From a virus, in IMG/VR virus record IMGVR_UViG_3300032893_000002, positions 1 through 46,667 of that record: 46,667 nucleotides of DNA. One strand, given 5' to 3'. Both the position numbers and the translations under genes were made by a program. Below, one piece after another: positions 1 to 46,667 of this stretch (positions within the stretch are counted from its first letter, which is position 1; each line of letters starts with the position of its first letter). Below the pieces are notes generated by a model. The model searched no databases. It saw only the letters and a list, made by a program, of their open reading frames with translations, and was not told where the DNA came from.

Positions 1-34
1 ATTTCGACTTCTATTGTAAGCTTCATCTGTCCTC

Positions 35-277
35 CTAGTTGAGTGGATGCACTTCCTGATCGAGCTCCACTGTAAATTCGTGCTTCTCGAGATCGGGGTG
101 AGCTTCAATGTAAGCATCGATCTGTTCGTCTGTCAGTCCATTTTGCGTCACTTTCTCTTCGTTGAGAATAGGGACGCAGACAGTTAATGTATCGCCTTTC
201 TTTTTGCCTGCAAGCGATGTGATAACTGTCACTTGCCCTGTTTTTGGATTGAGTAAAGCGTAGTCGTGTTTTCTCAT
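35..277 (-). CDS. hypothetical protein (80 aa)
   Basis: Intact ATG ORF in the six-frame track; same strand and compact spacing as neighbouring minus-strand genes; no recognisable motif. Confidence 0.45.
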   Translation of the reverse strand: MRKHDYALLNPKTGQVTVITSLAGKKKGDTLTVCVPILNEEKVTQNGLTDEQIDAYIEAHPDLEKHEFTVELDQEVHPLN

Positions 278-350
278 GCTACGCGTCTCCTTTGTAGAGA
301 TTAGGAAACTTGTTGTGCAGCAGATCGAAGATCATTCTATTGTCCTTTCG

Positions 351-391
351 AAATGGTAAAAAGGGGAGCACTCAGGAAAGGTGCTCCCCTA
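351..391 (-). terminator. rho-independent terminator (minus-strand transcript)
   Basis: Perfect 10-bp GC-rich stem AGGGGAGCAC(362-371)/GTGCTCCCCT(381-390) with 9-nt loop; on the minus strand it is followed by TTTTTACCATTT; lies 20 nt downstream of the stop of the 412..924 gene. Confidence 0.65.
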
Positions 392-411
392 TCTTCTGCC
401 GCGTTGTTGGA

Positions 412-924
412 TTAAGCAGCGCTCGTCTCAGCCTCTTCGGCTTCCTCTTCGCTGCCCGTTTCGAACACTTCCTCGACCGTGCCCACTTCGTTCGCAGCAA
501 CCGTCTGCGTCTCTCCCGCAGGAGCCGCTGCCTTCTTCGCTGCCTCTTGCGCCTTCTTCACCGCACGGCCGTTCTGCGCGGCCAAGCGCGTGTCGCCTTC
601 GATTGCGGCGTCATAAGCAGTGCGCACGCCGTCTTCCGGGTAAGAACGCAGATCGTCGATCACGATTCCAGCTTTCTTGCCAATCGAGATCTGCGGCCAG
701 GGCAGAGCGTTCGGGTCCGGCTTGCCGTCGGCGCCCAGAGTCTGTCCGTGCATGATCAACTTGCTCGTCGCCATGTCGTAAGTAAGCTTGAAGTCGACGT
801 TCGTCGGCCCCTGCTTGCGGTTCGCAACGCCTTCCATAATCCGCGTCGCCTGCGCTTCCTGCTCCTTCGTCGGCCCCTTCTTCACTTCCGGTTTTACTTC
901 CGGTGTCACTGCTGCTGTCGTCAT
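412..924 (-). CDS. hypothetical protein, paralog of 5731..6228 product
   Basis: Track ORF 412..1020 trimmed to internal ATG (MTTAAVTPEV...) preceded by AACGGAGAACGAAG SD; shares motif PWPQISIGKKAGIVIDDLRSY with EWPEIAVGKQGGIVIWVRTY of the other paralog; acidic and Lys/Ala-rich tails. Confidence 0.55.
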   Translation of the reverse strand: MTTAAVTPEVKPEVKKGPTKEQEAQATRIMEGVANRKQGPTNVDFKLTYDMATSKLIMHGQTLGADGKPDPNALPWPQISIGKKAGIVIDDLRSYPEDGVRTAYDAAIEGDTRLAAQNGRAVKKAQEAAKKAAAPAGETQTVAANEVGTVEEVFETGSEEEAEEAETSAA

Positions 925-1401
925 CTTCGTTCTCCGTTTCTGGCGTTTTTCCGGTCCGCCTTGACCCTTTGATTTATTATACAAGCTATTATATATGATT
1001 TTTAAGTAAAGGTCAAGCATTTACGGGCTTAAATTAAAGAATTCTGTGGAAATCTCTAGAAAACATTGGTTGATTCTAGGCGTAATCCTCGCAGTCTTAC
1101 TTTAAGTATAGTTAATTATATGGCAGCAGTAGACTTCATACTATTCTTTTGCGTCGCGAGTCTCTTCTTATTTAAAAATCTTCTGCTTACTCCCGGAGCG
1201 CAGATAAAAAATACAGTATTTCCCCTCCTCGTTGGTTTGGCGCGTAAGCGCGCGACAGCAAGCGCGCAGCGCCAGGACGATACACCAAGGGATTCGCCCC
1301 AATTACATCGAATTGTATTTAGTCATTCAGTAAGACCACCACCTTACTGTAAGCAGAGTAGCTTACATCTATCCCCCACTGTCACTGAGGGATAGTCTAA
1401 G

Positions 1402-1617
1402 CTACGGATGCTTCATTGCTTCAGTCGCCCAGTCTTGCGCATCGTTCCAGGCACACATGAGTAAGAGATAAACTATCTCACTCCATTCTGGAGGCGTGAC
1501 TTTATCTACTGCGTCGCGAATTGTCTTGTCGTATTCGTGTCCATTCCAAGATGCTTCACGAATTTGAACTGCGCGTTGAATGTAGCCAGCGAATTGCTTG
1601 ATGTCGGTTCTAATCAT
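1402..1617 (-). CDS. hypothetical protein (71 aa)
   Basis: ATG ORF, 15-nt spacing to next minus-strand gene. Confidence 0.45.
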   Translation of the reverse strand: MIRTDIKQFAGYIQRAVQIREASWNGHEYDKTIRDAVDKVTPPEWSEIVYLLLMCAWNDAQDWATEAMKHP

Positions 1618-1632
1618 TGTTTTTCTCCTTTG

Positions 1633-1905
1633 TTAGTCGGTGAAGTCTGAATTTCCGTTTGCGTACCAGCGTTCGATCTGTTCAATCGTTGGACAGTCTT
1701 CCTCTTCGTGAAAGAGCATGTCGCCTGATTCTTCCATTTCAGCGCAAGCGTCATGCGTCCATGATTCGTTCTGCTGATCGAACGTTCCATCTTCTTGTTT
1801 CCATGCTCCTGTTATTCCGGCAATTTTACCGGATTCAACAAAGCGATGGATAGTTAACAACACCTTGTCATCATCAACATACTTCCGTTCAGCTGATTTG
1901 ATCAC
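1633..1905 (-). CDS. hypothetical protein (90 aa)
   Basis: ATG ORF, GGAG-type SD region upstream, tight packing. Confidence 0.45.
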   Translation of the reverse strand: MIKSAERKYVDDDKVLLTIHRFVESGKIAGITGAWKQEDGTFDQQNESWTHDACAEMEESGDMLFHEEEDCPTIEQIERWYANGNSDFTD

Positions 1906-1920
1906 TGTTGTTCTCCTTTG

Positions 1921-2541
1921 TTAGACATACAGCAGGGAATAGCCATTTCCGTCGAAATAGATATGAGCAGCTTCTTCCCAATAGTGATTACCCGGTCGAG
2001 GTGATCCTTTGTCAAATCCTTTCATCGCTTCCTCCAGTGTTAAGTAGTAATCGTAAACTCCATAACCAAGGGACAGAAGCTTTTCTGGCACGCTTGAATC
2101 ATCTTCAAGTTCTTGAACCACCGGTACGTATTCTTTTGTTCCTGTGTAGATATGCGCTTCGACTTCTCCAAAGATTGGATGTTCCCAGCGCTTTCCTTCG
2201 TATGTAGCTTCAAACTTAGTACGAAGGAAAAAGTCTACTGCAGTATTCGGTTTTGTTTTCATTGTTTTTTCGATTAGCGTTGTTTCTTTTGGAAATGAAA
2301 TGATTCTGAATGGTCCTCTGGGTGGAGCATAATCATCCATCATTTCGAATTCAAGTCCTGGATGAATCTTCTCCAACGCTTCGAGCGCAGGCCGTAGATC
2401 ATCTGTGCATCCGGAATTGCCGTCGTGAAAGTTTACCCATCCGTTTGCGTCCAATGATTCGGACATTTTATCTGGCCAGTCATCCGAATCGATGTCTAAG
2501 CCATGAGCCTTTGACCATTCTACAGCTGTTGTATATTTCAT
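1921..2541 (-). CDS. hypothetical protein (about 206 aa)
   Basis: Track ORF 1921..2619 trimmed to MKYTTAVEW... start at 2541 with GGAGAGTAATA SD; stop of the upstream gene abuts it. Confidence 0.5.
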   Translation of the reverse strand: MKYTTAVEWSKAHGLDIDSDDWPDKMSESLDANGWVNFHDGNSGCTDDLRPALEALEKIHPGLEFEMMDDYAPPRGPFRIISFPKETTLIEKTMKTKPNTAVDFFLRTKFEATYEGKRWEHPIFGEVEAHIYTGTKEYVPVVQELEDDSSVPEKLLSLGYGVYDYYLTLEEAMKGFDKGSPRPGNHYWEEAAHIYFDGNGYSLLYV

Positions 2542-2543
2542 TA

Positions 2544-2942
2544 TTACTCTCCATTCTCCACAATGCTGATTGCATCGTTGTATGCAACTGCCGCAGCACG
2601 GTGCTGATCGACAGTCCATCCAGGATGCAGTTGGTTTGAGCTTGAGCCATTCGCATATGCCTCAGCAATATCCTTCAGCTTATGCAATTGCTCCAAGACT
2701 ATGTTCTTGATAAACTCGGCAACTCCAATCTTGTAGACGATCTTGCCTGGATATTTGTCTCGAAGCTGTTCCATTTGCAAGTCGACTACGCCGTACGCCC
2801 AGTCGTTGCTGATAAACAATCCGACGTCTTCCACAAAGATGATAGCGCGGAATGGATCCCGCGCGTTAGAAAGACGTCCGCGATCCTGCGCTAGCAGGTT
2901 CTGAGTGTCTGAAAGAGCTTGCATTAGTTGATCTTTAGTCAT
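2544..2942 (-). CDS. hypothetical protein (132 aa)
   Basis: Track ORF 2544..3083 trimmed to MTKDQLMQAL... start at 2942 with GGAGAGGATAAC SD; avoids overlap with 2944..3177. Confidence 0.5.
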   Translation of the reverse strand: MTKDQLMQALSDTQNLLAQDRGRLSNARDPFRAIIFVEDVGLFISNDWAYGVVDLQMEQLRDKYPGKIVYKIGVAEFIKNIVLEQLHKLKDIAEAYANGSSSNQLHPGWTVDQHRAAAVAYNDAISIVENGE

Positions 2943-2943
2943 G

Positions 2944-3177
2944 TTATCCTCTCCTTGATACATAGGTTGAAAGTAGGTATTGGCACCGATTGATAGCCTT
3001 AACTCGTTCATCGAGTTTCGGGTTGATTGGAGGCGAATGCTTAATCGCTTTCCTCCAATAGTGCAATTCGTCTTCTGCATCACAAAGGTTGTCCCAAATC
3101 AAAGCTAGTGACAATCCAAGCTCATTAGCTTCGTTTTGGAGCTGCTCGAACTCCTTGTCAGTTACCTTTTGCATCAT
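2944..3177 (-). CDS. hypothetical protein (77 aa)
   Basis: ATG ORF, stop/start junction with downstream gene. Confidence 0.45.
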   Translation of the reverse strand: MMQKVTDKEFEQLQNEANELGLSLALIWDNLCDAEDELHYWRKAIKHSPPINPKLDERVKAINRCQYLLSTYVSRRG

Positions 3178-3240
3178 TGTTATTCTCCTTAAAGAAAGTT
3201 AAGGGAGGATGCTTTCCTGTTACATCCTCCCGATTGGTTG

Positions 3241-3528
3241 TTAGATGATCGGATCATCACAAATCATCGATCCATATCGTCCGCGAAGTTCTCTTCCAAG
3301 ACGGTGTTCAATATCTTCTAGAGATTTTCCTTCAACAATTTCATGCTCATTCACATGTTCTTGGAATTCTTCTTTGACGAATCCCTCTGTGATAAGCAGT
3401 TGAAGTTCTTCATACGTTACATTGACGTGCAGCATTGTTGTTGTTTTCACTTTCTTCGGTCCAAACTCCGCAGGGTAGATGTCGTAATATACTCTGTATT
3501 GTTCAGGCATTGTTGTTCTCCTTTGCAT
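3241..3528 (-). CDS. hypothetical protein (95 aa)
   Basis: ATG ORF with GGAGAACAACA SD-like sequence. Confidence 0.45.
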   Translation of the reverse strand: MQRRTTMPEQYRVYYDIYPAEFGPKKVKTTTMLHVNVTYEELQLLITEGFVKEEFQEHVNEHEIVEGKSLEDIEHRLGRELRGRYGSMICDDPII

Positions 3529-3688
3529 CCATGATGTTGAGTGTAAATACTTTCATCCAAGTTAATCCATCTTTGTGATACTGCTTTACTTCCGCCTGCG
3601 CATTTGCATACTCAAGGTATGCACAGTTGGAAGACATTGGCTCAGGACCATGCGTTCCTTGCATGGCTACGATGAAGATCTCTTTCAT
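3503..3688 (-). CDS. hypothetical protein (61 aa)
   Basis: ATG ORF overlapping neighbours by a few nt (operon-style coupling). Confidence 0.35.
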   Translation of the reverse strand: MKEIFIVAMQGTHGPEPMSSNCAYLEYANAQAEVKQYHKDGLTWMKVFTLNIMDAKENNNA

Positions 3689-4122
3689 TGTTGTTCTCCT
3701 TTTAGCGTATTCGGAGTTACACGCTTAGTTTCTGTGCATGGTTTCGCATAGCGTGGACGCCTCTTCTGTGGATTGGAATAGTCCCGCTTTCTGGTTCCAT
3801 CTAGATTCTCCCAATACAGAGGATACAATCCGAGATGTTGTCCAAATCTTCCAACAGGAATATGTCCTCCGCAGTGATTGCAGATTGCATATGTTCTGTG
3901 GAAGCGTCCAGTCGATTTTGCTTCTTCTCTGCTGATGACATAGACCCAAGTATCGCCCAGTAGCTTCTTAGGAACAGCAGTTACTGGAAGCTTCTTGGGT
4001 AAGCCCATTGCTTGTTTGATGTGATGTTCTTGAGCAATGCCGCGATGCCGATTGTCTTGATCGCCTTCGAAGCATAGCCGCAGGTCTTTTCCGATTGTGT
4101 ACTTATCCCAATTGATTGACAT
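3685..4122 (-). CDS. putative HNH-like / zinc-binding nuclease (145 aa)
   Basis: His/Asn-rich segment DNRHRGIAQEHHIK plus CNHCGGH cysteine/histidine cluster; weak resemblance to HNH motif only. Confidence 0.3.
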   Translation of the reverse strand: MSINWDKYTIGKDLRLCFEGDQDNRHRGIAQEHHIKQAMGLPKKLPVTAVPKKLLGDTWVYVISREEAKSTGRFHRTYAICNHCGGHIPVGRFGQHLGLYPLYWENLDGTRKRDYSNPQKRRPRYAKPCTETKRVTPNTLKGEQQ

Positions 4123-4133
4123 TGTTATCTCCT

Positions 4134-4565
4134 TTAGATTGTGAACTCGTCGTTCGGAAACTGATTCAGTTCTTGTTGAACTTCGTGAAGATGCAGTTGA
4201 CGTTCTTCTCCTACTTCATTCAATATATCTAGAATGAATTGAACGTTTCCTGCTTTTGTTTGAATGGTACGGAGACGAACGTTCGTAAACCATTGCTCCG
4301 TTCCGCGAGGTATCTTGCTCGCATCTCCTTGTAGATCATTATCTCTGATGTGAATTCTGAATCCTCCATCTGCTTCTTCTACTCTGTATCCATCTGTTTG
4401 TCCATGCTTCATGAACAAGACATGTGGATTACCTTCATACTTCCACGGTGAATGAGCGTTAGGCTTTGGTATCTTCATCTGGAGTGCTCCATCCTTTCCT
4501 TTGATATTCGTTTTCGAGAAGAATTTGATCTCTGATAGCATCCCAGTCTTTTGGATTCTTCTCAA
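4134..4565 (-). CDS. hypothetical protein (start uncertain, up to 143 aa)
   Basis: ATG ORF; internal start MKIPKP... at 4478 has AAAGGATGGAG SD and may be the true start. Confidence 0.45.
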   Translation of the reverse strand: MRRIQKTGMLSEIKFFSKTNIKGKDGALQMKIPKPNAHSPWKYEGNPHVLFMKHGQTDGYRVEEADGGFRIHIRDNDLQGDASKIPRGTEQWFTNVRLRTIQTKAGNVQFILDILNEVGEERQLHLHEVQQELNQFPNDEFTI

Positions 4566-4625
4566 GTTGTTGTTTTGTTTCTGCCCACCAGCGGTCGAGA
4601 GTTTCTTTGGGTATTTCGTGATAAG

Positions 4626-4838
4626 TCATATTTCTTCTCTCTTTGTTTCTGCCAGTGACATCATTCTGGCTGGTAGCTGTTCTGCTGTACAGATATTGCC
4701 TTTGGAGTCTACTATGAAAGAGACTCCTCCGACAGAATCTGGACTGAATTGGACAAGGATTAATTCACATACCCTGTCCGCTTTCGTTCCATACATCTTC
4801 TCGAGTTTGAGCAAACGTGCTTTCTGTGCAAGTGTCAC
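4626..4838 (-). CDS. hypothetical protein (70 aa)
   Basis: ATG ORF; its ATG overlaps the stop of the 4838..5017 mini-gene. Confidence 0.45.
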   Translation of the reverse strand: MTLAQKARLLKLEKMYGTKADRVCELILVQFSPDSVGGVSFIVDSKGNICTAEQLPARMMSLAETKREEI

Positions 4839-5017
4839 TATTCAACCTCCCAAGGTTCGAACACACGTGGTTCATCTGGAATTGGTACGCTTGTGCCTCC
4901 TACAACATCGAAGGGCTTTCCGCATGCGTTACACTTCCAGCTCTGTCCATATCCAGGAGCTCCGTACTCTCCTTGATACTCAGTATTGGTGCTTTTGCAG
5001 TATGCGCATTCTTTCAT
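4838..5017 (-). CDS. small zinc-ribbon-like protein (59 aa, below 60-aa track cutoff)
   Basis: Hand translation MKECAYCKSTNTEYQGEYGAPGYGQSWKCNACGKPF...; CxxC..CxxC; GGAGGACTAACA SD; fills an otherwise unexplained gap. Confidence 0.4.
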   Translation of the reverse strand: MKECAYCKSTNTEYQGEYGAPGYGQSWKCNACGKPFDVVGGTSVPIPDEPRVFEPWEVE

Positions 5018-5019
5018 TG

Positions 5020-5187
5020 TTAGTCCTCCTTCCGTCTCTCGACGATTTGTTGTGATGGTTTCAGTCTAATTACTTTCCGATGACTGTAGCCGCTCTTCCT
5101 GTTACGGGAGCTGAAACGAATTCCAGTTCCTTTACATTCGCCGCAGCCTCGTCCCATACCAAAACACTTACCACACTGTCGTTTCAT
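5020..5187 (-). CDS. small Cys-rich protein (55 aa, below track cutoff)
   Basis: Hand translation MKRQCGKCFGMGRGCGECKGTGIRF...; TAAAGGAGGTCCT SD; stop overlaps SD of the next mini-gene. Confidence 0.35.
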   Translation of the reverse strand: MKRQCGKCFGMGRGCGECKGTGIRFSSRNRKSGYSHRKVIRLKPSQQIVERRKED

Positions 5188-5197
5188 AGGACCTCCT

Positions 5198-5530
5198 TTA
5201 CTTTCCGATTTGCGCCCAGGCGTCGGATGTGTAATGTTCGTTGAGATAGTCTACGATCTCGATCAGCCGTTCGTAGTAAGCTTTGTAGTTCGGAGAGTGT
5301 TTGTCTTCAGGTTCTTGTGTGTACTCGACAAATTGAGCTCTGGTCTGCTCCATTGTCTTTCCAATTGCCAAACGGAAGCCGATTGACTCGTACCACTCGT
5401 AATAATATCTTCCGCCAAGTGGCTCCGGTTCGACTCCAAAGTGTTTGCAGATCTCTTCGTCAATTTCTACGAAGCTGACTGGACCAGCTTTAAGATTGGA
5501 CTTCCGGGTAAGCTGAAAGTAATTGGGCAT
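5198..5530 (-). CDS. hypothetical protein (110 aa)
   Basis: Track ORF 5198..5578 trimmed to MPNYFQL... with AAAAGGAGAATAAGCAA SD. Confidence 0.5.
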   Translation of the reverse strand: MPNYFQLTRKSNLKAGPVSFVEIDEEICKHFGVEPEPLGGRYYYEWYESIGFRLAIGKTMEQTRAQFVEYTQEPEDKHSPNYKAYYERLIEIVDYLNEHYTSDAWAQIGK

Positions 5531-5730
5531 TTGCTTATTCTCCTTTTGGATGATACTATGGTATAGCCCCGCGCCCAACTATGCGTTAGACGCGGGACTA
5601 TTAAGGTTTAACTAGCAGGTAATTAGCTTTGGACGATCCCGGATCGTTCTGCGTTTGAGATGTCATCGACAATCATTGTGTACTTGTCCCAACGAATGTT
5701 ATCGATCTTAACTCCTCCCTGATTGATTAA

Positions 5731-6228
5731 CTACTGTTGCTGTTGCATCTTCGGTTGCGTCTCGTCGATTGCCTTTTGGAGCATATCAGCAAGACTTCCT
5801 TGTTCCTTTGCTTTCTGTTCTTTCTCTTTCATTTCGTCTTTCGTTGAACGAACCCGTTCCTTCTTGGGTGGAGCAGGAGGGACGTTCTTCTCGACGACGA
5901 CTTCTTCCTTTCCGACGCCAGCTTTCTTTGCGTCTCGACCGACTTGCTTTGCCAAGAGCTGATCTGCTTCCAAGGCCCATTCGAAAGCAGACTTCTTCGA
6001 TTCATCGTAGGTGCGAACCCAGATGACGATTCCGCCTTGCTTTCCAACAGCAATCTCGGGCCACTCCAGCGGTCCATGTCCTTGAAGAATCACCTTGCCG
6101 TCCCGTTCGCTCTGATCGAACGTCACATCCGGACGCAGTTCTTGCATCTTAGCCAGGAACTTCGCGACCATCGTGGTCTGCTTGGTTGCGATCACAGCGA
6201 CTTGGGTAGCAGTTTGATTGTTCGTCAT
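5731..6228 (-). CDS. hypothetical protein, paralog of 412..924 product
   Basis: Track ORF 5731..6294 trimmed to MTNNQTATQ... with TAAGGAGGATAAT SD; shared G(K/Q)xGIVI motif; Lys/Glu-rich C-terminus. Confidence 0.55.
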   Translation of the reverse strand: MTNNQTATQVAVIATKQTTMVAKFLAKMQELRPDVTFDQSERDGKVILQGHGPLEWPEIAVGKQGGIVIWVRTYDESKKSAFEWALEADQLLAKQVGRDAKKAGVGKEEVVVEKNVPPAPPKKERVRSTKDEMKEKEQKAKEQGSLADMLQKAIDETQPKMQQQQ

Positions 6229-6294
6229 ATTATCCTCCTTAAGGATAAAGGTTAGAGTTGCGTTGATGGTTGGGTTGCGAGAAACTTTTTGCAA

Positions 6295-6537
6295 TCAGAG
6301 AAGCAAGATTGGATGGCCGAGAATTTCTTCAGCCTGCGCAATCCTATCCTCTAGATCCTTCGCTCCGAAGACCCAGTCAAGAAGTTTTGCACTTGTCTCT
6401 GTTCTTTCGGTTACTGATGCTGTGAACAGATGTCGCTCAGTCTGTTTACGAAAGCTGTCCACGACAGAAGAAAAAGCAGCTTTTGCTTTTTCTTCAGTTT
6501 CAGCATCAAACTGGCATTCAATTACGAAGTGTTTCAT
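6295..6537 (-). CDS. hypothetical protein (80 aa)
   Basis: Trimmed to MKHFVIECQ... with AAAAGGAGAATCAAT SD. Confidence 0.45.
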   Translation of the reverse strand: MKHFVIECQFDAETEEKAKAAFSSVVDSFRKQTERHLFTASVTERTETSAKLLDWVFGAKDLEDRIAQAEEILGHPILLL

Positions 6538-6680
6538 ATTGATTCTCCTTTTTCTGGTTAGAGTTGCGTTGATGTTAGGTATTGGGTCGCTCGCCCTTTC
6601 GGGATTCACTCTTATACCTTTAGAAGCCGAGTTCTTTCAGCTTCTCGACAGCTACGGAACAGATAGCTGCGTTCAGCATG

Positions 6681-6833
6681 TTAGTCTCCTTGCTTAGTGA
6701 GTTGTTCGTACTGCTGTTCTAGTTGAGCAAACTTGGTTTCTAGCATGCGCTTCAAATACTTGTCCTTACAGCGTTTGATTTGTATTTGAAGTACTTCTGC
6801 ATGCGTGAGCATATCTTCGCGTGCTTTATCCAT
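6681..6833 (-). CDS. hypothetical protein (50 aa)
   Basis: Trimmed to MDKAREDML... with AGAAAGGAGCTGT SD; coiled-coil-like. Confidence 0.35.
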   Translation of the reverse strand: MDKAREDMLTHAEVLQIQIKRCKDKYLKRMLETKFAQLEQQYEQLTKQGD

Positions 6834-6879
6834 ACAGCTCCTTTCTCTGCGTGGTAAGTATGCGCAGCCCGCTGTTTTG

Positions 6880-7086
6880 TTAGAACCGCCAGACTGCTTT
6901 GACGTTATCCGGCAATGGTTCCGTCTTCCTGACACGGACCGATGCCGGCAAGTCACTTGTCATTCCTGCCAAAGGTTTGACATTTGTTACGCGTGACTGG
7001 CAAGTTACGATTGGTTTGTGTGTTGACTTTTTCAAGCTTGCAACTGAGCGAGCAAGCTCTCGGTAGATTTCCTCTTGTTTGAACAT
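6880..7086 (-). CDS. hypothetical protein (68 aa)
   Basis: ATG ORF, AAGGGACAATCTGT SD-like. Confidence 0.3.
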   Translation of the reverse strand: MFKQEEIYRELARSVASLKKSTHKPIVTCQSRVTNVKPLAGMTSDLPASVRVRKTEPLPDNVKAVWRF

Positions 7087-7199
7087 ACAGATTGTCCCTT
7101 CAGGTTGGTTAAGTTAGAGGAGATGTAGGTGGAGGACTAGCCACACCATAACTCTGACAATGGCTAATCCTAAGCAGAACAGTACGTATCTGATTGGTG

Positions 7200-7430
7200 T
7201 CATCTCACATCCATGATCAGCATTGCGCCGTCTCGGGTGTAAGCAGCCATCCACATCAGAGTGCCAATGTATCCAAGCCTGTGTCGTACAAGCCTGAATA
7301 TTTGGTACAGTACGTACCACTGTTCACGTGTGAACTGCGCGTGATTCATTTGTCTTTGTCCTTTCTTTTGTAACGTTGAAGTAAGGCCATGATGCCGCAG
7401 AATATCATCATGGCCATTGATACGTAGCAT
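7200..7430 (-). CDS. hypothetical protein (start ambiguous)
   Basis: Track ORF 7200..7544 overlaps 7451..7753 by about 90 nt, so an internal start (MLRING at 7430 or MNHAQ at 7349) is more likely; weak SD. Confidence 0.25.
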   Translation of the reverse strand: MLRINGHDDILRHHGLTSTLQKKGQRQMNHAQFTREQWYVLYQIFRLVRHRLGYIGTLMWMAAYTRDGAMLIMDVR

Positions 7431-7450
7431 CCGAACAGCATGGTTCTCAA

Positions 7451-7753
7451 CTACTTCTTCCCACGCAAGACCAGTTGCGCCGGAGCGTACTTGTTCATGT
7501 TCAAGATCTGTTGAGATCCGGGAAGGTAGTGATACATTGCACATCGAAGAGCCTTGTTATATGGTTCTCCATTCGTTACCTGATCCACAACGTTCTCTTC
7601 GAACTTCCGGATGCGTTCCAGAGCCTTCTCTTTGAACTCCACAGCGAGCATTCGGCATACTAGCCCGTAGGCTTTGTCTGCCGCCTCGATGGAAGACATG
7701 TTGGTGAGAAACTCCTTGTTCATGCGAAGGAGCACTTGTGTTGTTGCGTTCAT
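7451..7753 (-). CDS. hypothetical protein (100 aa)
   Basis: ATG ORF with AGAAGAGGATAATAACA SD. Confidence 0.5.
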   Translation of the reverse strand: MNATTQVLLRMNKEFLTNMSSIEAADKAYGLVCRMLAVEFKEKALERIRKFEENVVDQVTNGEPYNKALRCAMYHYLPGSQQILNMNKYAPAQLVLRGKK

Positions 7754-7977
7754 TGTTATTATCCTCTTCTGAGTCGTTTCCTGAGCGACTCTGTTAGTTG
7801 TTATTGGAAGTCAACGTACATCTTGGCAATTTCCACGATCTCGTGTTTGCCAATACGTTTGTTGACAGTCTTCTCACGGAACGCATTTCTTTGTTCCGTA
7901 AGACCCTCACTCTGAAGACGATCCGAGATATGTCGGATGACCTCTTCTGCTTACAGGTTGACTAGCTACACTGCCAA

Positions 7978-8145
7978 TCAGATCTCGCAAGCTATCTTAC
8001 TCAGCAGCATGTGGTTATAGCACTTGCTCATCCACACAGGTACTTCGTGAATGAACGGATCAGCTGCATTACGTAACTCATGCAGCAGCTTTGGATCGTC
8101 TGTCTCGATCACCAGAACGTTCCCTTCATCAAATGCAATTACCAT
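7978..8145 (-). CDS. hypothetical protein (55 aa)
   Basis: Trimmed to MVIAFDEG... with GGAGGTAGT SD. Confidence 0.45.
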   Translation of the reverse strand: MVIAFDEGNVLVIETDDPKLLHELRNAADPFIHEVPVWMSKCYNHMLLSKIACEI

Positions 8146-8146
8146 A

Positions 8147-8341
8147 CTACCTCCTTCCATTCCACCGCTCAGCGGTATTGTTGATTGAATCGTTAAGGAT
8201 TACAGCCGGAACGACATGAGCATCGTTAGGCCGTATGTCTACTACCTTTACAGTCTCAGCACCATCCTCATTCCAGTCTATACACACTAGACGGTATGAG
8301 CCATCAGGCGAGACTAGCACTGATACGTGATCTGCCATCAT
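8147..8341 (-). CDS. hypothetical protein (64 aa)
   Basis: ATG ORF, AAAGGGGGGATGT SD, 1-nt spacing to neighbours. Confidence 0.45.
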   Translation of the reverse strand: MMADHVSVLVSPDGSYRLVCIDWNEDGAETVKVVDIRPNDAHVVPAVILNDSINNTAERWNGRR

Positions 8342-8505
8342 ACATCCCCCTTTGCAATGTGCTTGTCAAACCACTGTTCGATCTTCCGTAGAGCAAGCTC
8401 CTTGTCTTGAAGACATAGCTTACCCTCCTGATAGCGGGGATTATCCGTTACCATGATATGCAGGCTTGGATAATCCCCACGGCTTTGATACAGAGCGATT
8501 GTCAT
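8338..8505 (-). CDS. hypothetical protein (55 aa)
   Basis: Trimmed to MTIALYQ... with CTAAGGAGGCTGTA SD. Confidence 0.45.
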   Translation of the reverse strand: MTIALYQSRGDYPSLHIMVTDNPRYQEGKLCLQDKELALRKIEQWFDKHIAKGDV

Positions 8506-8515
8506 TACAGCCTCC

Positions 8516-8680
8516 TTAGAGTTGAGGATTGGTTGTGAAGATCCACACAAAGCCCATGATCAATACTGTTAGGCTTAGTGCACGTTGTACGCTCTTTGTC
8601 TCGCCTTCAGCAGCAATGGTCATTAGGCTAGGAGCGCCACAGATCAGGAACAGCACTGCGATCGTTACTTGTAGTGACAT
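8516..8680 (-). CDS. small membrane protein (54 aa, below track cutoff)
   Basis: Hand translation MSLQVTIAVLFLICGAPSLMTIAAEGETKSVQRALSLTVLIMGFVWIF...; two hydrophobic helices; GGAGGAAGAAAATAGT SD. Confidence 0.4.
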   Translation of the reverse strand: MSLQVTIAVLFLICGAPSLMTIAAEGETKSVQRALSLTVLIMGFVWIFTTNPQL

Positions 8681-8681
8681 A

Positions 8682-8810
8682 CTATTTTCTTCCTCCGATC
8701 CTTAGGATTAACCCGATACCAGTTAGTAGTAACCCGAAGCACACTGCACCGAACAGTGCAGTGGCTACTAGTTGTTTCAACGCATCTGCTGCGATTTGAA
8801 GCTCTTGCAT
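8682..8810 (-). CDS. small membrane protein (42 aa)
   Basis: Trimmed to MQELQIAADALKQLVATALFGAVCFGLLLTGIGLILRIGGRK with CGAGGAGGAAGT SD; single TM helix; first gene of the minus-strand operon. Confidence 0.4.
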   Translation of the reverse strand: MQELQIAADALKQLVATALFGAVCFGLLLTGIGLILRIGGRK

Positions 8811-9010
8811 ACTTCCTCCTCGTTGTGTGATTTCTACTACTTGTATCACCATACTATGTATGATACCAATTAAGCCCATAGTCATTATACATGCTGTGTT
8901 AACATGCTATTGGTGTAGAACCAAAAGTTATTTTTAAATTACCCGCACTGCCTTTCTTAACTATGGAGAAGTTTTTAAATTTCTACAACTGGTAAATTGT
9001 ATAATATAAT
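8811..9010. promoter_or_regulatory. divergent promoter region between the two arms
   Basis: 200-bp AT-rich gap between the first minus-strand gene and first plus-strand gene; contains TTGTATAATATAAT directly abutting ATG 9011 and several TATAAT-like hexamers on both strands. Confidence 0.5.
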
Positions 9011-9877: not shown

Positions 9878-10275
9878 GTAATAAAATTTCGGTTTCACAT
9901 TCTTCTTTTTCAAAAAGTGGGTACTTCGAGTTTTTATAAAAATTTCTATAACTCGGTAATAGTATAGGTTAATGATTCAGACCAAAAGGTCTTATGCTCG
10001 TTCTCCTCTGCACTGGACAGAGCTTCATCAATGAATAATCTTAATACATTATTCTGGCATATAAAACTGTGATCAAGTCTACTGCTATCTAATAGCCAAG
10101 ACCCATGCACTAGATGAGGATAAACCAGCCCATACGGCACTCGTTCACCTAAGAGAGTACCTACATGGCTTGAGGGCACTTCGCTGCATCATCAAGTGTT
10201 CCTTATGCCACCAACATCTATTCAACGTCTTCTAACATAGATAACTAATATAGAAGAGATAATATAGAGGTAGAT

Positions 10276-10482
10276 ATGTTTAATTTACTATCATGGATAT
10301 CAGCTTCTTTAACAGTTATCGGAATGTATCTAGTAGGTAGGAAGCTATGGTATGGATGGATTGTTAATCTGTTCATTTTAGCTTATATCAATTATACATT
10401 CCGATTGTATGGCTTCCTAGTATTGAATGGATTTTTGTTTATCCTGTTCATGAAGAATGCTGTTCAATGGAGATACAAATGA
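10276..10482 (+). CDS. small membrane protein (68 aa, 2 predicted TM helices)
   Basis: ATG ORF with AGAGGTAGAT SD; strongly hydrophobic sequence. Confidence 0.4.
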   Translation: MFNLLSWISASLTVIGMYLVGRKLWYGWIVNLFILAYINYTFRLYGFLVLNGFLFILFMKNAVQWRYK

Positions 10483-10751
10483 ATATGTTCTATATACCTG
10501 AGGATGAGATGCAATTTCAATTTCCTATCTTTCGTCGTGATTGTCATCCTGTTCATTTAACTGATGATACAGTTTTATCTTTTATCACTGGTGTTCGTGT
10601 ACTATATAATGCTATGACATATCTGTTTGAGCGGTATGATGATCGTTCAGTTCTCAACGTCTTTAAACAGGATATTGGTGATTACTACGCACTCCGCATA
10701 TTAGCTGCCTTACATTTAATCGTATCACAGGGTAGGGAAGAGCGGGTTTAA
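10467..10751 (+). CDS. hypothetical protein (94 aa)
   Basis: ATG ORF overlapping previous by 16 nt. Confidence 0.4.
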   Translation: MEIQMNMFYIPEDEMQFQFPIFRRDCHPVHLTDDTVLSFITGVRVLYNAMTYLFERYDDRSVLNVFKQDIGDYYALRILAALHLIVSQGREERV

Positions 10752-10806
10752 TGCGCAATCAAAATCGTTAATGCGCAATCAAAAGCAGGATATGCGCAAT
10801 CAAAAA
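10749..10806. repeat. three direct repeats of ATGCGCAATCAAAA at 20-21 bp spacing
   Basis: Seen directly: copies at 10751-10764, 10771-10784, 10792-10805, each preceded by TA/TT; immediately upstream of the CGGTAATAGTATAATTATATG motif. Confidence 0.85.
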
Positions 10807-10819
10807 GAGCGATATAGTG

Positions 10820-10840
10820 CGGTAATAGTATAATTATATG
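10820..10840 (+). promoter_or_regulatory. conserved motif CGGTAATAGTATAATTATATG (putative promoter, extended -10 like)
   Basis: Near-identical to 13719-13740 (CGGTAATTAGTATAATTATATAT) and similar to 9954-9974 (CGGTAATAGTATAGGTTAATG), 8991-9010, 37851-37863. Confidence 0.5.
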
Positions 10841-10860
10841 TCCAAAGGTTATACCTGGCA

Positions 10861-11091
10861 ATGCCAAAATTATATTCTTTCTTTGCTCACTTCAATCGTT
10901 GTAATATGCAACGTGGACTAAATAATGTCTGGACCGTCCACTTTCGAGGTGTTTGTTATCAAGTTGAAGGGATAGACTTTCGTGTTCCTACAAAAACTAG
11001 GTATAATAAAAGCGGTCGCCAGCCTAGAGCAACCATACGTGGACGTGCTAGATTTATTACGATACATAACAACTTTGCTGTTGTTAGATAG
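10861..11091 (+). CDS. hypothetical protein (76 aa)
   Basis: ATG ORF downstream of the putative promoter; poor SD. Confidence 0.3.
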   Translation: MPKLYSFFAHFNRCNMQRGLNNVWTVHFRGVCYQVEGIDFRVPTKTRYNKSGRQPRATIRGRARFITIHNNFAVVR

Positions 11092-11099
11092 GAGATAAT

Positions 11100-11315
11100 A
11101 TGCGTGAAACACTTGTAAAATGTGATAAGTGTGGACAATCGGTTACGTTCCATGGACCAACACCTCCTTCATTCAGACTCTTTAGAACGGAATCGGCTGG
11201 GCCGGAAGGGCCAACTGAACATTTCTTCGACTGTGATCTTTGTGTAAATTGTATCGTTGCTGCGTTCAACTTGATAGGAGAAGAGAACTTCAAAATATTT
11301 CTAAATAAGAGGTAG
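11100..11315 (+). CDS. zinc-ribbon protein (71 aa)
   Basis: CDKCGQ...CDLCVNC pattern; ATAGGAGATAAT SD. Confidence 0.5.
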   Translation: MRETLVKCDKCGQSVTFHGPTPPSFRLFRTESAGPEGPTEHFFDCDLCVNCIVAAFNLIGEENFKIFLNKR

Positions 11316-11325
11316 TCTTTTTTAT

Positions 11326-11739
11326 ATGGCTTCCAAACTAGAATATTTAGATAAACCCGTTCGTACAACACATGGTATTGAAACGATTACTCAGGAAGAA
11401 CTAACGTTACTGTATAAACTCCGTTATATCGATAACGATTGTAAAAATAAGAGAAATAAGCAAGCTCGCACGTTAACGCCAGAAGAGAGACAGACGAAGA
11501 CTGCTATTCAGCGAAAAAAGAATCGTATCAAATATGCGACAGATCGGCAAAAATTAACAGAAGAAGATTTTGAGCGTAAGCTGCAGAATATAGAACGATG
11601 CCATAAGCTTCTATCTAAATACTGGAATGATAGATTAAGTAAAGATGCGAAATTAAAATTCGCTAAGCAAATTAAAAGAAAGAAGGAAATTCAGTCTGCT
11701 GTAGAGGCATATAGGAAGATAACAGGAGGCCGGCCATAG
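11326..11739 (+). CDS. basic hypothetical protein (137 aa)
   Basis: ATG ORF, Lys/Arg-rich (nucleic-acid binding plausible). Confidence 0.5.
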   Translation: MASKLEYLDKPVRTTHGIETITQEELTLLYKLRYIDNDCKNKRNKQARTLTPEERQTKTAIQRKKNRIKYATDRQKLTEEDFERKLQNIERCHKLLSKYWNDRLSKDAKLKFAKQIKRKKEIQSAVEAYRKITGGRP

Positions 11740-11930
11740 CATATACAGGTGAATGCCAGGCGTGTAAGAATACAAAAGACAAGCAGTTAGAAGTTGTAGG
11801 CGCGCAAACAAAACTTGACTACTGCGATTCTCACCTAATCGAGCTTCGTGAATATACGAAAGGCTGGATGGCAGAAATGCAAGAGTTCCTCGTAGAGATT
11901 GAAAAAGAGATTGTGAATAGAGGGTTATAA
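11736..11930 (+). CDS. coding-like ORF with no ATG/GTG/TTG start (possible AUA start or decayed gene)
   Basis: 62 stop-free codons in an AT-rich region translating to ...ECQACKNTKDKQLEVVGAQTKLDYCDSHLIELREYTKGWMAEMQEFLVEIEKEIVNRGL; AGGAGG(11724-11729)-6 nt-ATA(11736); absent from the track because it lacks a canonical start. Confidence 0.3.
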   Translation: MAYTGECQACKNTKDKQLEVVGAQTKLDYCDSHLIELREYTKGWMAEMQEFLVEIEKEIVNRGL

Positions 11931-12051
11931 GTTTTTTGCTATTCCTGGACAAAACCCAGGCCGCTCAACGGGACTAAGTTACAGAGAACCGTTCACCTAA
12001 GTGACGAGAGGTAAGCTACCTGTAACGGACTGAAATTAGCAAATTTTAAAG

Positions 12052-19573: not shown

Positions 19574-19600
19574 AAGTAGCCAACGAATAAAAATATTTAC

Positions 19601-22723: not shown

Positions 22724-22975
22724 ATGGGAATTTGCGTCATCACACATAATCAGGCAAAGAAGTGGGAAGATACAGACGTTAGGCCGAATTGTTCACATCA
22801 TTTTCATATATCTGCAAAACAGGCATATATTGCCGTAGGCGAAGATAATGCGAATTGGTTCGATGGCCCATCTTCAAGAGCAATAGTTTTTCATGATTGC
22901 GTATTAAGATATGAGTGGCAGGCTAGAAAAAGTATAGGGTTTAACGTTTTGCAGATGGTACCAATTAGAAAATGA
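22724..22975 (+). CDS. hypothetical protein (83 aa)
   Basis: ATG ORF whose ATG lies inside a TAGTATAAT motif; stop overlaps terL start. Confidence 0.4.
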   Translation: MGICVITHNQAKKWEDTDVRPNCSHHFHISAKQAYIAVGEDNANWFDGPSSRAIVFHDCVLRYEWQARKSIGFNVLQMVPIRK

Positions 22976-25908
22976 GTATATCCCCTAGAGATCGAAGAAT
23001 TGCGGATACAGTACTAGATCCAGTTAAGTTTGCTAAACTATACTTCGATATTGATTTGTGGGGAAAGCAGAAAGAGATTTTAAACTCAATTGCTGTTAAT
23101 CAACGTACGGCTGTTAAGAGTTGCCACTCAAGTGGAAAATGTGTTGCTGCAGATGAGGTTCTAACGTTAGCAGACGGTTCGAGAATAAAAGCTAAAGATC
23201 TTATTGGCAGAAGTTTTGCATTGCCTACATTAGATGAAGAAGGACATGTTGTTGCTGCAGCAGCAAAAGCAGAATTTAATGCAGTTGAAGAAGTATTTAT
23301 AATAACTACGGAATCCGGAAAGCAGATTGTAAGAAATGCGGAACACCCGCTTTGGCGCGGCGAACGGCTGCCGTGGAACTTAGGTGAGAAAGATACAAAA
23401 TTAACGTTCGGACCCGGCAAAAATTTTGGCGCAAAGAAATTCAATTTGCCAAAAAACATTAGTTGGAGTGATGTAAGAGGAACAATATTTCCCAGAGGAT
23501 GGACTTCAGTTGCGGAGTTAAAAGAAGGCGATTACGTAGCTATGGCTGCTTCATTGCCAGTTTTTGGCTCAGAAGAAATATGTGAAGCAGAATTAAAAAT
23601 TCTTGCCTATTTAATAGGTGATGGGTGCGTTTCTCAGGACGGGGCTCCTGGGTTTACTCAACAAGAAAATAAACAATTAGAAGAATTTCGTTTTTGTGTA
23701 GAAGCAATAGGCTGTAGGCTACATAGACATAACGATCTGGACTACTCAGTTTACGGACAAGGAACGAAACACGTAAAAAGAAAAAATCCTGCATCTGAAT
23801 TAGTAAGAAAGCATGGATTAGCTGGTAAAAAATCAAAAGATAAATTTGTTCCAGAAGTAGTGTTCTCTTTAACAAAAGAACAGACAGCAATTTTTTTATC
23901 GCGCTTATTTGCAACAGATGGTTGGGCAGAGATAAGGGGAATTTATTATTCTAGTACTTCATTTCGTTTAGTACAGGATATTCGAGAACTTCTTCTTCGT
24001 TTTGGAATTATTGCTGATATTAGCAAGAAAAGTACATTTTGGCTATATAAAGGAGTAGAAAAAACAGGCATAGCCTACGATCTTAGCATAAACAGAGCTG
24101 CCAATATAATAGCGTTTTGCGAAGAAATCGGAATTTACGGAAAAGAGCAACAGACTGTAAGAGCATTGGCAAATGCTCGAGAATCTATTGCACGCTGTTC
24201 TGCAGAACATTTTCACAAAACTGGAACTTCGGCACGAACAAAGACGAATTTTGGAAGAGGCCAGCATAGCAGTTTATGGAGAATGAAAACTGCTCCAAAA
24301 GGCACATACTGGGAAAAGATTAAATCTATTGAATATAGAGGTATAGAAGAAACAGTAGCAATAGAAGTTCCAGACTACGGCACGTTTTTAACACAATTTT
24401 GGGAGCATAATACATTTACATCAGCACTAGCAACACTTTGGTTTCTTGCGTCGCATCCAAAAGAAGCAATTGTAATTACAACTGCTCCTACTTATAATCA
24501 GGTTCAGAAGCAGCTATGGGGCGAAATTAAGTCGTTACTAATTAAGAGTAAGCTGAAGTGGCCAGAGCCATCGTTAACAGAATTAAGATTACATCCGAAG
24601 AGATATGCAACTGGATTAACAACATCTGTTACTAAAGGCGATGAGGGCGTTAAGTTTCAAGGTTTTCACGCCGATGACATTCTAGTAATATTAGACGAAG
24701 CTCCAGGCGTAGAGCCAAAGATTTGGGAAGCTATTGAAGGCGCACGAGCTGGTGGCAACGTAAAGATTCTTGCTATCGGAAACCCAACAATTGCTAGCGG
24801 ACCGTTTCACGATGCGTTTGTAAATAATCGTTCCGGCTGGAATTGCATATCAATTAGCGCATTTGACACACCGAACCTTCAAGGTATAGAATTAGAACAG
24901 CTTATTGATCCAAATCATCCAAAATATCTTACGGATGCGCAATTAAAAGAGAATCAGCAGAGTTTTTTAACAACAAGATTTTGGGTTAAAGAAAAGTATT
25001 TTGAATGGGGTCCAACACATCCTGCATGGGAGACTCGTGTTCTTGGCTGCTTTCCATCGCAGAGCGATGATGCTTTATTCGGGCTAATGTACCTAGAGAA
25101 AGCACGAGATAGTGATCTTAAAGCATCGCCAGCGGACAAAGTTGTAGCAGGATTAGATGTAGCTGGACCAGGAGAAGATGAAACAGCGTTAGTAATTAGA
25201 AAAGGTCCGGAGATTCTATATAGTAATGCTTGGGCAACTGCTGATCCGAGAGGCAAAGTTGTTGCGGCATTGAATCAATACAGAAGTGAGTTATCTGCTG
25301 TTAATGTGGATAAGTTAGGAATTGGATGGGGAATGTACACTCACTTAAAAGAGTTGGGATTCCCAGTTGTAGCTATTAATATTACAGAGACAAGTACTGA
25401 TCCGGAACAGTTTTTTAACTCACGCGCTGAATTTTGTTGGGGATTTAGACTTAGACTTCAACAAGGACAAGTAAGCGGCCTTCTAGATGAAAAGACAATT
25501 GGGCAATTAGCTGGAATGCGATTTAAGCAGAATGCTAGAGGACAAACAGAAATTGAATCTAAAGATGCTGCATTTAAACGCGGTGTACATAGTCCAGATA
25601 GAGCTGAAGCTGTTTTGTTAGCTTTCGCAGAGCGAAATAAATCATATAGCGCACTTGAGTATTACAAAGGAGTTATGAGTAGTATGGAGAAAGCACAAGC
25701 AGCTTTAATGATGAAGCCAGCAATGCCAGACAAACCAAAGGAATGTCCTACATGTCGAGCCGTTTGCGTTGTACAGCTTGCGAGTGGGTTTCGTTGTAAT
25801 CAGTGTGGATGTCAATTCGGCGGAAAGGGAAGTTCAATCGGACAACCTAATCAGCGTACAGAGTACTTACAAAAATTGGATGCTGGTAGACGTAACTTAT
25901 GGAAGTAA
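22972..25908 (+). CDS. terL: terminase large subunit, interrupted by an intein (exteins 22972..23139 and 24412..25908)
   Basis: Spliced sequence gives Walker A KSCHSSGK|TFTSALATLWFLA; Walker B ILVILDEAPG; C-terminal nuclease-like region and terminal CxxC cluster; intein flanked by Cys1 and His-Asn / +1 Thr. Confidence 0.85.
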   Translation: MSISPRDRRIADTVLDPVKFAKLYFDIDLWGKQKEILNSIAVNQRTAVKSCHSSGKCVAADEVLTLADGSRIKAKDLIGRSFALPTLDEEGHVVAAAAKAEFNAVEEVFIITTESGKQIVRNAEHPLWRGERLPWNLGEKDTKLTFGPGKNFGAKKFNLPKNISWSDVRGTIFPRGWTSVAELKEGDYVAMAASLPVFGSEEICEAELKILAYLIGDGCVSQDGAPGFTQQENKQLEEFRFCVEAIGCRLHRHNDLDYSVYGQGTKHVKRKNPASELVRKHGLAGKKSKDKFVPEVVFSLTKEQTAIFLSRLFATDGWAEIRGIYYSSTSFRLVQDIRELLLRFGIIADISKKSTFWLYKGVEKTGIAYDLSINRAANIIAFCEEIGIYGKEQQTVRALANARESIARCSAEHFHKTGTSARTKTNFGRGQHSSLWRMKTAPKGTYWEKIKSIEYRGIEETVAIEVPDYGTFLTQFWEHNTFTSALATLWFLASHPKEAIVITTAPTYNQVQKQLWGEIKSLLIKSKLKWPEPSLTELRLHPKRYATGLTTSVTKGDEGVKFQGFHADDILVILDEAPGVEPKIWEAIEGARAGGNVKILAIGNPTIASGPFHDAFVNNRSGWNCISISAFDTPNLQGIELEQLIDPNHPKYLTDAQLKENQQSFLTTRFWVKEKYFEWGPTHPAWETRVLGCFPSQSDDALFGLMYLEKARDSDLKASPADKVVAGLDVAGPGEDETALVIRKGPEILYSNAWATADPRGKVVAALNQYRSELSAVNVDKLGIGWGMYTHLKELGFPVVAINITETSTDPEQFFNSRAEFCWGFRLRLQQGQVSGLLDEKTIGQLAGMRFKQNARGQTEIESKDAAFKRGVHSPDRAEAVLLAFAERNKSYSALEYYKGVMSSMEKAQAALMMKPAMPDKPKECPTCRAVCVVQLASGFRCNQCGCQFGGKGSSIGQPNQRTEYLQKLDAGRRNLWK
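23140..24411 (+). mobile_element. intein (424 aa) with LAGLIDADG homing-endonuclease domain inside terL
   Basis: Begins CVAADEVLTLADGS (block A, Cys1), block B T..H (NAEHPLW), LAGLIDADG motifs LAYLIGDGCVS and LSRLFATDGWAE, ends ...FWEHN followed by Thr; in-frame with terL. Confidence 0.85.
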
Positions 25909-46531: not shown

Positions 46532-46667
46532 GTGCGTAAATTTATTTTTATTGATAAAAAATCTGGAGATGATGCCAATGATGGATTATCTCCAGATAAG
46601 CCACGACGGACGTTTCTAGCGTCCACTTCAGATATCATTTATGAAATAGCAGATACCAGAATAACAT
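46532..46667 (+). CDS. 5' end of a gene for a right-handed beta-helix (pectin-lyase-fold, tailspike/depolymerase-like) protein; partial
   Basis: GTG start 3 nt after previous stop; VRKFIFIDKKSGDDANDGLSPDKPRRTFLAS matches the common N-terminal G-x-D-x-N-D-G-(S/T)-x-x-x-P-x-x-T signature of beta-helix proteins; runs off window. Confidence 0.35.
   Translation, partial: MRKFIFIDKKSGDDANDGLSPDKPRRTFLASTSDIIYEIADTRIT

Follow-up and report, generated by a model that had tools for sequence, protein, structure and literature searches.

Genomic context of the locus

The DNA analysed here, a stretch of 46,667 nt (hereafter the window), belongs to a large and novel tailed phage rich in ORFans. It encodes a small terminase (21049), an unusually long large terminase (22972–25908), a portal (30251) and a capsid-like protein (35255), and its other recognisable genes specify a dCMP deaminase, a dual-specificity phosphatase, an RNA ligase, MazG, a dNMP phosphatase and a GIY-YIG nuclease. 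At 978 aa, the large terminase ORF shows terminase similarity only over about residues 480–900. Its first 480 residues look like hypothetical or primase-like proteins from large phages of Bacillus, making this an unusual fusion or an insertion. For the window we found no nucleotide match among GenBank phages, no tRNA and no terminal repeat. The genome extends past the window, as a further 9.9 kb of it (L036) carries genes directly after 45148–46530.

A minus-strand arm (1–8885, GC 44–53%) meets a plus-strand arm that begins at 9011 (GC about 38%). Shine-Dalgarno sequences precede genes here, and textbook sigma-70 promoters occur in several intergenic regions (for example TTGACA-17-TATAAT near 19600), which points to an ordinary sigma-70-type polymerase in the host. 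We considered and rejected a genome end at 8921, the start of two contigs from one sample (L001 and L004), as this position is a branch point of the k = 141 assembly. The first 141 nt of L001 and L004 are identical and the two then diverge, as co-occurring strains do at such a point.

Searches for close relatives returned none from GenBank phages (nucleotide) or from IMG/VR (DNA pattern and 90-aa protein). Likewise, searches with the 71-aa, 90-aa and 288-aa proteins, together with a HMMER scan with the 137-aa protein, covered billions of proteins and recovered nothing beyond the phage itself and a single sister lineage. L004 (ENA) and L018 (JGI) represent this one diverged lineage and do not differ from each other at the repeats described below. 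Three further metagenome contigs (L001–L003), from other samples, are identical to the window over the region and are uninformative for conservation.

The locus lies between small plus-strand genes. Upstream is an ORFan at 10479–10751, which encodes 90 aa from an ATGA-coupled start (94 aa from 10467). Downstream, three ORFans follow one another on the plus strand: a very basic 76-aa protein (10861–11091), a 71-aa CxxC...CxxC protein (11100–11315) and a 137-aa Lys/Arg-rich protein (11326–11739). The 76-aa gene is probably coding, since its substitutions relative to L004 are biased toward synonymous changes (7 to 5, hand count); an AF2 model of its product, built without an alignment, had a pLDDT of 43 and was unusable. 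No Pfam or PHROG function and no known DNA-binding domain was recognised in the proteins neighbouring the repeats.

Two further features follow this gene block. The stretch 11736–11930 (+) appears as unannotated coding sequence (…AIAYTGECQACKNTKDKQLEVVGAQTKLDYCDSHLIELREYTKGWMAEMQEFLVEIEKEIVNRGL*), with differences from L004 that are mostly synonymous. It has no ATG, GTG or TTG start; an AGGAGG at 11723–11728 is followed by ATA at 11736, and the stretch uses either a rare start codon or a frameshift extending the 137-aa ORF that ends at 11739. Its product has no Pfam match. Immediately beyond it, about 125 nt (11931–12051) are missing from L004/L018 exactly between two genes. CGTTCACCTAAG occurs both in this segment and at position 10143, within the ORF-poor conserved stretch 9969–10275. 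The segment has no Rfam match and might be a small mobile element or an RNA element.

Three identical 14-nt repeats at two-turn spacing

A pattern search of the 46.7-kb window located ATGCGCAATCAAAA on the plus strand as three exact copies, at 10751–10764 (repeat 1), 10771–10784 (repeat 2) and 10792–10805 (repeat 3), with start-to-start distances of 20 and 21 bp. These are the three 14-nt repeats of 20–21 bp periodicity that an earlier note on this DNA had pointed out, and its count of 14 nt between the array and a promoter-like motif is likewise exact: the last base of repeat 3 is 10805 and the first of CGGTAATAGTATAAT is 10820. The same note had placed the array at the boundary of an AT-rich island, but GC content is 0.36–0.38 on both sides and the actual shift in composition lies near 8900. 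Its suggestion that the rest of the genome be searched for further copies yielded no exact match elsewhere in the window or in the additional 9.9 kb of L036, leaving the locus unique in the 56.6 kb of genome that is readable. The nearest other match in the window, at 24935 inside the terminase ORF, has one mismatch.

The first two copies extend to 17 nt as TTAATGCGCAATCAAAA (10748–10764 and 10768–10784) and the third reads GATATGCGCAATCAAAA, giving the layout TTAATGCGCAATCAAAA-TCG-TTAATGCGCAATCAAAA-GCAG-GATATGCGCAATCAAAA over 10748–10805. Repeat 1 overlaps the TAA stop codon (10749–10751) of the upstream 90-aa gene. The span 10765–10791 holds repeat 2 and the spacers on either side of it, TCGTTA (10765–10770) and GCAGGAT (10785–10791). 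These spacers bear no relation to one another, yet the cores match exactly, a contrast that speaks for selection on the cores themselves. A first-order Markov model predicts 0.0017 copies of ATGCGCAATCAAAA per window, against the three observed within 55 bp, and Tandem Repeats Finder placed the triple repeat as the top-scoring array of the 46.7 kb (score 81).

Each core is largely asymmetric, its only dyad being the palindromic hexamer TGCGCA, and ends in an A-tract at its 3' end. The A-tracts (AAAA, AAAA and AAAAA, at 10761, 10781 and 10802) are exactly in phase at 20–21 bp. The array unit has no internal 10–11-bp periodicity and consists of a continuous 14-bp core with a free spacer of 6–7 bp.

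Shorter parts of the repeat occur elsewhere. The 9-mer core TGCGCAATC has three extra exact plus-strand copies, at 6335, 33917 and 37753, all inside coding regions; 0.54 copies are expected over both strands (P about 0.02), the flanks of these copies do not resemble the 14-mer, and they are probably due to chance. In public genomes and metagenomes, two copies of TGCGCAATCAA lie 18–22 bp apart at 31 loci, one of which is the sister phage (L018). The other 30 are on unrelated, mostly GC-rich contigs with tandem repeats of their own; the ORFs beside these repeats have nothing in common with the window and, except within groups of near-identical contigs, little similarity to one another. Several soil metagenome contigs (L017, L021, L022, L029, L031 and L032), as well as L006, L013–L016, L023 and others, carry 19–22-nt or 11-nt tandem repeats containing TGCGCAATCAA, and in one soil contig family CTATGCGCAATCAAAAAGG, the exact 14-mer, occurs twice at 21-bp spacing. 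Such collections abound in tandem repeats, and we provisionally treat these loci as coincidence. A literature search for the repeat sequence returned only PCR primers.

The repeats abut a promoter-like motif with a perfect -10 and no -35

The motif CGGTAATAGTATAAT (10820–10834, +) contains a perfect -10 hexamer, TATAAT, at 10829–10834 and has no -35. The hexamers at 16–18 bp spacing upstream of TATAAT are GAGCGA, AGAGCG and AAGAGC (AGAGCG at 17 bp), all unlike TTGACA, and a two-hexamer sigma-70 scan gave no plus-strand match at the motif. The predicted start site is near 10841, about 7 nt after the -10, and positions given relative to it hold to within about ±2 bp. With this start, the cores span -90 to -77, -70 to -57 and -49 to -36, with centres at -83.5, -63.5 and -42.5 for repeats 1, 2 and 3, respectively. 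All three cores thus lie between -90 and -36, overlapping neither the -10 nor the predicted start, and the 3' end of repeat 3 falls just upstream of the position expected for a -35 hexamer. An antisense sigma-70-like promoter (TTGCCA-17-TATAAT, 10861 to 10833) was set aside as probably a chance match, its -35 having become TTACCG in L004.

The motif recurs, in the near-identical form CGGTAATAGTATAGG, at position 9954 of the window and at positions 1033 and 1946 of L004. The copy at 9954 precedes a 300-nt stretch before a 68-aa gene, and the L004 copies bracket an insertion of two genes (105 and 167 aa); from these positions, the motif behaves as the head of a gene module. The triple repeat is found only at the 10820 copy, the sister promoters (9954 and L004 1033/1946) having no array, which makes the array an add-on specific to the 10829 promoter. 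The -10 also differs, being TATAAT at the 10820 copy and TATAGG in the sister promoters.

The sister copies have a wider context of their own. CCGGTAATAGTATAGGTTA heads the conserved 300-nt stretch (window 9954–10275), which shows 4.6% divergence and contains no plus-strand ORF, and in L004 it is found at 1033–1050 and 1946–1965, that is, at both ends of the two-gene insertion. It marks the edges of exchangeable gene cassettes, recalling promoter-associated recombination junctions in other phages.

The cores and the promoter are conserved in a diverged sister phage

The window and L004/L018 differ by 12.8% over 10276–11739. The earlier note had looked to relatives that retain the flanking genes, and in this one comparison the repeats are present there in three copies. 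Against this regional divergence, the cores show 0 of 42 differences and the spacers 5 of 13 (Fisher's exact p = 3.7e-4, for a single inter-lineage comparison). L004/L018 have TCGTTT twice in place of TCGTTA and GCAGGAT, with one base lost, and their spacing is therefore 20/20 rather than 20/21; three copies and same-face phase are kept in both. Adjoining the spacers is an invariant 58-bp block (10792–10849, +), which runs from repeat 3 through the 14-bp linker, the promoter motif and the predicted start near 10841 to about +8. It has 0 of 58 differences (P about 3e-4 at the regional rate), and differences resume at 10850.

Units 1 and 2 of L004/L018 form a perfect 20-nt tandem duplicate, ATGCGCAATCAAAATCGTTT twice, which shows that slippage or conversion operates at the array. 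Nevertheless, the contrast of 0/42 with 5/13 differences, together with the invariant 58 bp, argues for selection on the 14-mers and the promoter and against a neutral duplication. Cores kept, spacers drifting, and number and phase retained are what one expects of a functional array of sites, and this is what the one comparison shows. These patterns indicate that the array is a real, selectively maintained cis-element, in which the 14-mers, their number and their approximate phase are under selection.

The repeats probably bind a regulator of the adjacent promoter

The three 14-mers are very probably sites for a regulatory protein, and are best read as a same-face array for a sequence-specific protein controlling the adjacent promoter. 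The earlier note had proposed binding sites on one face of the DNA before a promoter-like motif; the invariant cores, variable spacers, retained copy number and phase, and invariant promoter block all lend indirect weight to this. It had left the choice between operator and iterons open, and here the evidence leans toward transcription: the array abuts a TATAAT without a -35, and the usual companions of an origin are absent.

We favour activation over repression or a roadblock, although activation of the 10829 promoter by a protein bound to the array is a tentative reading, held with clearly less than even confidence. It draws on the perfect -10, the missing -35, the proximal site abutting the -35 position and the two further sites at two-turn intervals. 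A recognisable -10 with a poor or absent -35 is characteristic of activator-dependent promoters, and the 10829 promoter has exactly this form. The region upstream of -36, where all of the array sites lie, is typical of activators. For a proximal activator site a centre near -41.5 is expected, with further sites whole helical turns upstream; the centres here are -42.5, -63.5 and -83.5 if transcription starts at the predicted 10841. Head-to-tail activator arrays around the -35 have been documented structurally for GlnR (PMC10235972).

Under activation, the bound protein would control the promoter at 10829–10834 and through it the block of 76-aa, 71-aa and 137-aa genes. The proximal protomer would substitute for the missing -35 contact via sigma region 4 or the beta flap, whereas the two upstream protomers would bind cooperatively, stabilise the proximal one and perhaps contact alpha-CTD. 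A bend may also come from the phased A4–5 tracts that close each unit on its 3' side. Counting against activation, the neighbouring ORFan proteins have no known DNA-binding domain, and the 56.6 kb readable contain the array at a single locus, as one would sooner expect of an origin or a local autoregulatory operator than of a global activator. In addition, the sister promoters carry the motif without an array, so the motif alone may suffice, in which case the array would more likely tune or repress.

Similar layouts are known from response regulators and from lambda. The OmpR boxes F1-F2-F3 at ompF have a comparable tandem arrangement. GlnR, of the OmpR/PhoB family, likewise binds direct repeats in 20–22 bp units, one to three in a row, that lie upstream of, and abut, the -35 position at promoters with a weak or absent -35, with a class II-like proximal protomer and class I-like distal ones (PMC10235972). 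Each 20–22-bp box of this family, however, comprises two short half-sites 11 bp apart, as opposed to one continuous 14-bp core, and no response-regulator or winged-helix gene was found among the phage proteins scanned. In lambda, the operators OR1-OR2-OR3 are three sites of about 17 bp that lie a little over two turns apart and are bound cooperatively, and cI activates PRM from OR2 near -42. The array resembles them in having three phased sites, one of them with a predicted centre near -42 beside a promoter. In contrast, the lambda operators are palindromic, lie between two divergent promoters and overlap them, whereas the repeats here are direct and upstream of one promoter; the antisense sigma-70-like match is not conserved, and no cI-like gene was found. 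To our knowledge, the sites of the host factors DnaA, IHF, CtrA, Spo0A, CRP, LexA, cre and PurR do not fit the array, and a scan of the array for DnaA and IHF patterns found neither. A pac or cos site was also rejected, the small terminase gene lying 10 kb from the array with no link between them.

The cognate protein is most likely phage-encoded. The 71-aa CxxC and 137-aa Lys/Arg-rich proteins are candidate binders by proximity only. Two more specific ideas were dropped: an Ogr/Delta-type zinc-finger activator for the 71-aa protein, which has no Pfam match, and a bZIP protein, suggested by the C/EBP-like look of ATGCGCAAT and the bZIP-like one of the 137-aa protein, for which there was no bZIP family match. 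The only recognisable sequence-specific DNA-binding proteins found in the phage are a pair of GerE/LuxR-type HTH proteins (PF00196, E 2.7e-9 and 2.6e-10), 36 kb from the array; as a binder they are a speculative candidate, unlinked to it. Their genes are adjacent (115 and 103 aa; window 46532–46667 and L036 2949–3582) and lie within the late/structural region, and the first (46532–46667, +) is cut by the window end.

A fuller scenario, which we consider doubtful, is that the array is the sole genomic target of a conserved local ORFan (the 76-, 71-, 137- or 90-aa protein) whose fold or family is not yet recognised as DNA-binding. Array and protein would then form a compact, self-contained switch before a -35-less promoter class defined by CGGTAATAGTATA, and would time the passage from early to middle expression in a lineage of large environmental phages that is still uncharacterised. 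As an element the array is of a textbook type, though the phage lineage that carries it is very poorly known, and it leaves current understanding unchallenged. Its value is as a small, testable entry into gene regulation in a lineage of mostly ORFan proteins; its binder, once known, would reveal what at least one orphan protein does and would define the CGGTAATAGTATA promoter class.

Possible repression or a roadblock

The closest rival to activation is that the protein-bound array acts negatively, which we judge unlikely without thinking it far-fetched. As an autoregulatory operator, it would be bound cooperatively from -36 to -90 and block the access of alpha-CTD and sigma-4; as an orientation-dependent roadblock, it would halt read-through from upstream early promoters and thereby insulate the downstream unit. 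A single locus in the genome read is as expected of a local operator, and the sister CGGTAATAGTATA promoters without an array suggest that the core motif may be self-sufficient. The better -10, moreover, belongs to the regulated copy (TATAAT against TATAGG). We found no terminator between the 90-aa gene and the array, so read-through has to pass three sites in the same orientation.

Repressor sites usually overlap the -10 or the start, and operators are generally found over the -35, -10 or +1 or in the transcribed region. The array, by contrast, has no site on the -10 or predicted start, although its sites do lie in the read-through path from upstream promoters. The missing -35 is also more naturally explained by an activator. 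Among phage repressors, C of P2 acts on 8-bp direct repeats 22 bp apart centre to centre, or two helical turns, and these sites are, like the repeats here, non-palindromic and directly oriented (PMC1904268). They are two in number, however, and flank the -10, unlike the three clustered 14-bp sites upstream of -36. The repressors of L5, phi105 and P1 use asymmetric operators, and the L5 sites also stop elongation (PMC1934351). L5 has about 30 dispersed 13-bp sites, as against three 14-bp sites at a single locus. No homologue of the P2 C, L5, phi105 or P1 type was detected among the phage proteins scanned, and Pfam and PHROGs gave no repressor (HTH_3, cI, C or gp71-like) among them, the genome being incomplete.

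A possible iteron-type origin

The main rival to a transcriptional role is an iteron-type phage origin, in which an initiator would occupy the same-face sites and the promoter would provide transcriptional activation or primer RNA. We regard this as improbable. Iterons of phages and plasmids, with P1 oriR, lambda ori and T4 oriE as the classic examples, comprise at least three direct repeats of 17–22 bp at about two-turn spacing, at a unique locus and sometimes with or beside a promoter. The array, with three direct repeats of 17–20 bp in helical phase at about two turns, a unique locus in the genome read and an adjoining promoter, shares this geometry. It also lies 1.8 kb from the minimum of cumulative GC skew and the point of divergent transcription near 9000, but this minimum coincides with the switch in coding strand, which explains it without an origin.

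Other hallmarks of iteron origins are missing. The closest DnaA-box matches, with one mismatch, are at 10115 and 11130, leaving none within 300 bp, and no AT-rich unwinding element is apparent, the 40-bp AT peak of 0.72 comparing with a local background of 0.57–0.70. Remote homologues aside, no Rep, helicase, primase or polymerase gene was recognised beside the array or among the window proteins scanned, and the flanking genes encode ORFans of 68–137 aa, far below the size of known initiators. If the array were an origin after all, it would locate the initiation of replication in this lineage.

Improbable readings: neutral duplication, DNA bending and transcript- or peptide-level roles

We consider it quite improbable that the array is a functionless tandem duplication produced by replication slippage, with its conservation only apparent through recent origin or concerted evolution. 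The perfect 20-nt duplicate of units 1 and 2 in L004/L018 shows slippage or conversion at work, the conservation rests on one inter-strain comparison, and the unrelated metagenome contigs that carry tandem repeats with TGCGCAATCAA suggest that such arrays can arise widely. Yet identical cores set between unrelated spacers, as in the window, are the opposite of a young duplication of whole units, and the significant excess of spacer over core differences, with copy number and helical phase kept despite spacer turnover, also speaks against it.

It is very unlikely that the array works without a dedicated protein, through phased A-tracts that bend the DNA or act like UP elements for host alpha-CTD and so make up for the absent -35. 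Upstream curvature and UP elements have their effect between -80 and -35, and the tracts do lie in this interval and exactly in phase at 20–21 bp. However, the G+C-rich half of the repeat, ATGCGCAATC, is as strictly conserved although neither bending nor alpha-CTD binding requires it, and the spacers, which would matter for curvature, are free to vary, including by a 1-bp indel.

Least credible of all is an element acting at the level of RNA (a 3'-UTR or leader in read-through transcripts), for which the array folds no better than shuffled sequences (z = -0.24), has no Rfam match at E ≤ 1 and contains no terminator-like site, or of peptides encoded by small ORFs. Every repeat does start with ATG (MRNQ...), and the first of these ATGs shares bases with the upstream stop as TAATG, a coupling arrangement. 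FDCA repeats are encoded on the antisense strand, within an ORF (10867 to 10748) that specifies the same first 25 residues in L004, the four changes there being synonymous. Against a peptide, the sense mini-ORFs have 6, 20 and 13 codons in the window but 21, 17 and 13 in L004, with changes of frame, and the three cores are read in different frames. The antisense ORF, in turn, stops in L004 right after core 3 (25 aa, compared with 39 aa in the window), so coding cannot explain the conservation of cores 1 and 2.

The antisense ORF has one further property. Its four synonymous substitutions (ORF at 10748–10867, -), at 10850, 10853, 10856 and 10859, are exactly 3 nt apart, and the same four changes create in L004 a near-perfect 10-nt tandem, (A/C)GGTAATGCC. 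The ORF may be a gene for a small hydrophobic peptide or a coincidence.
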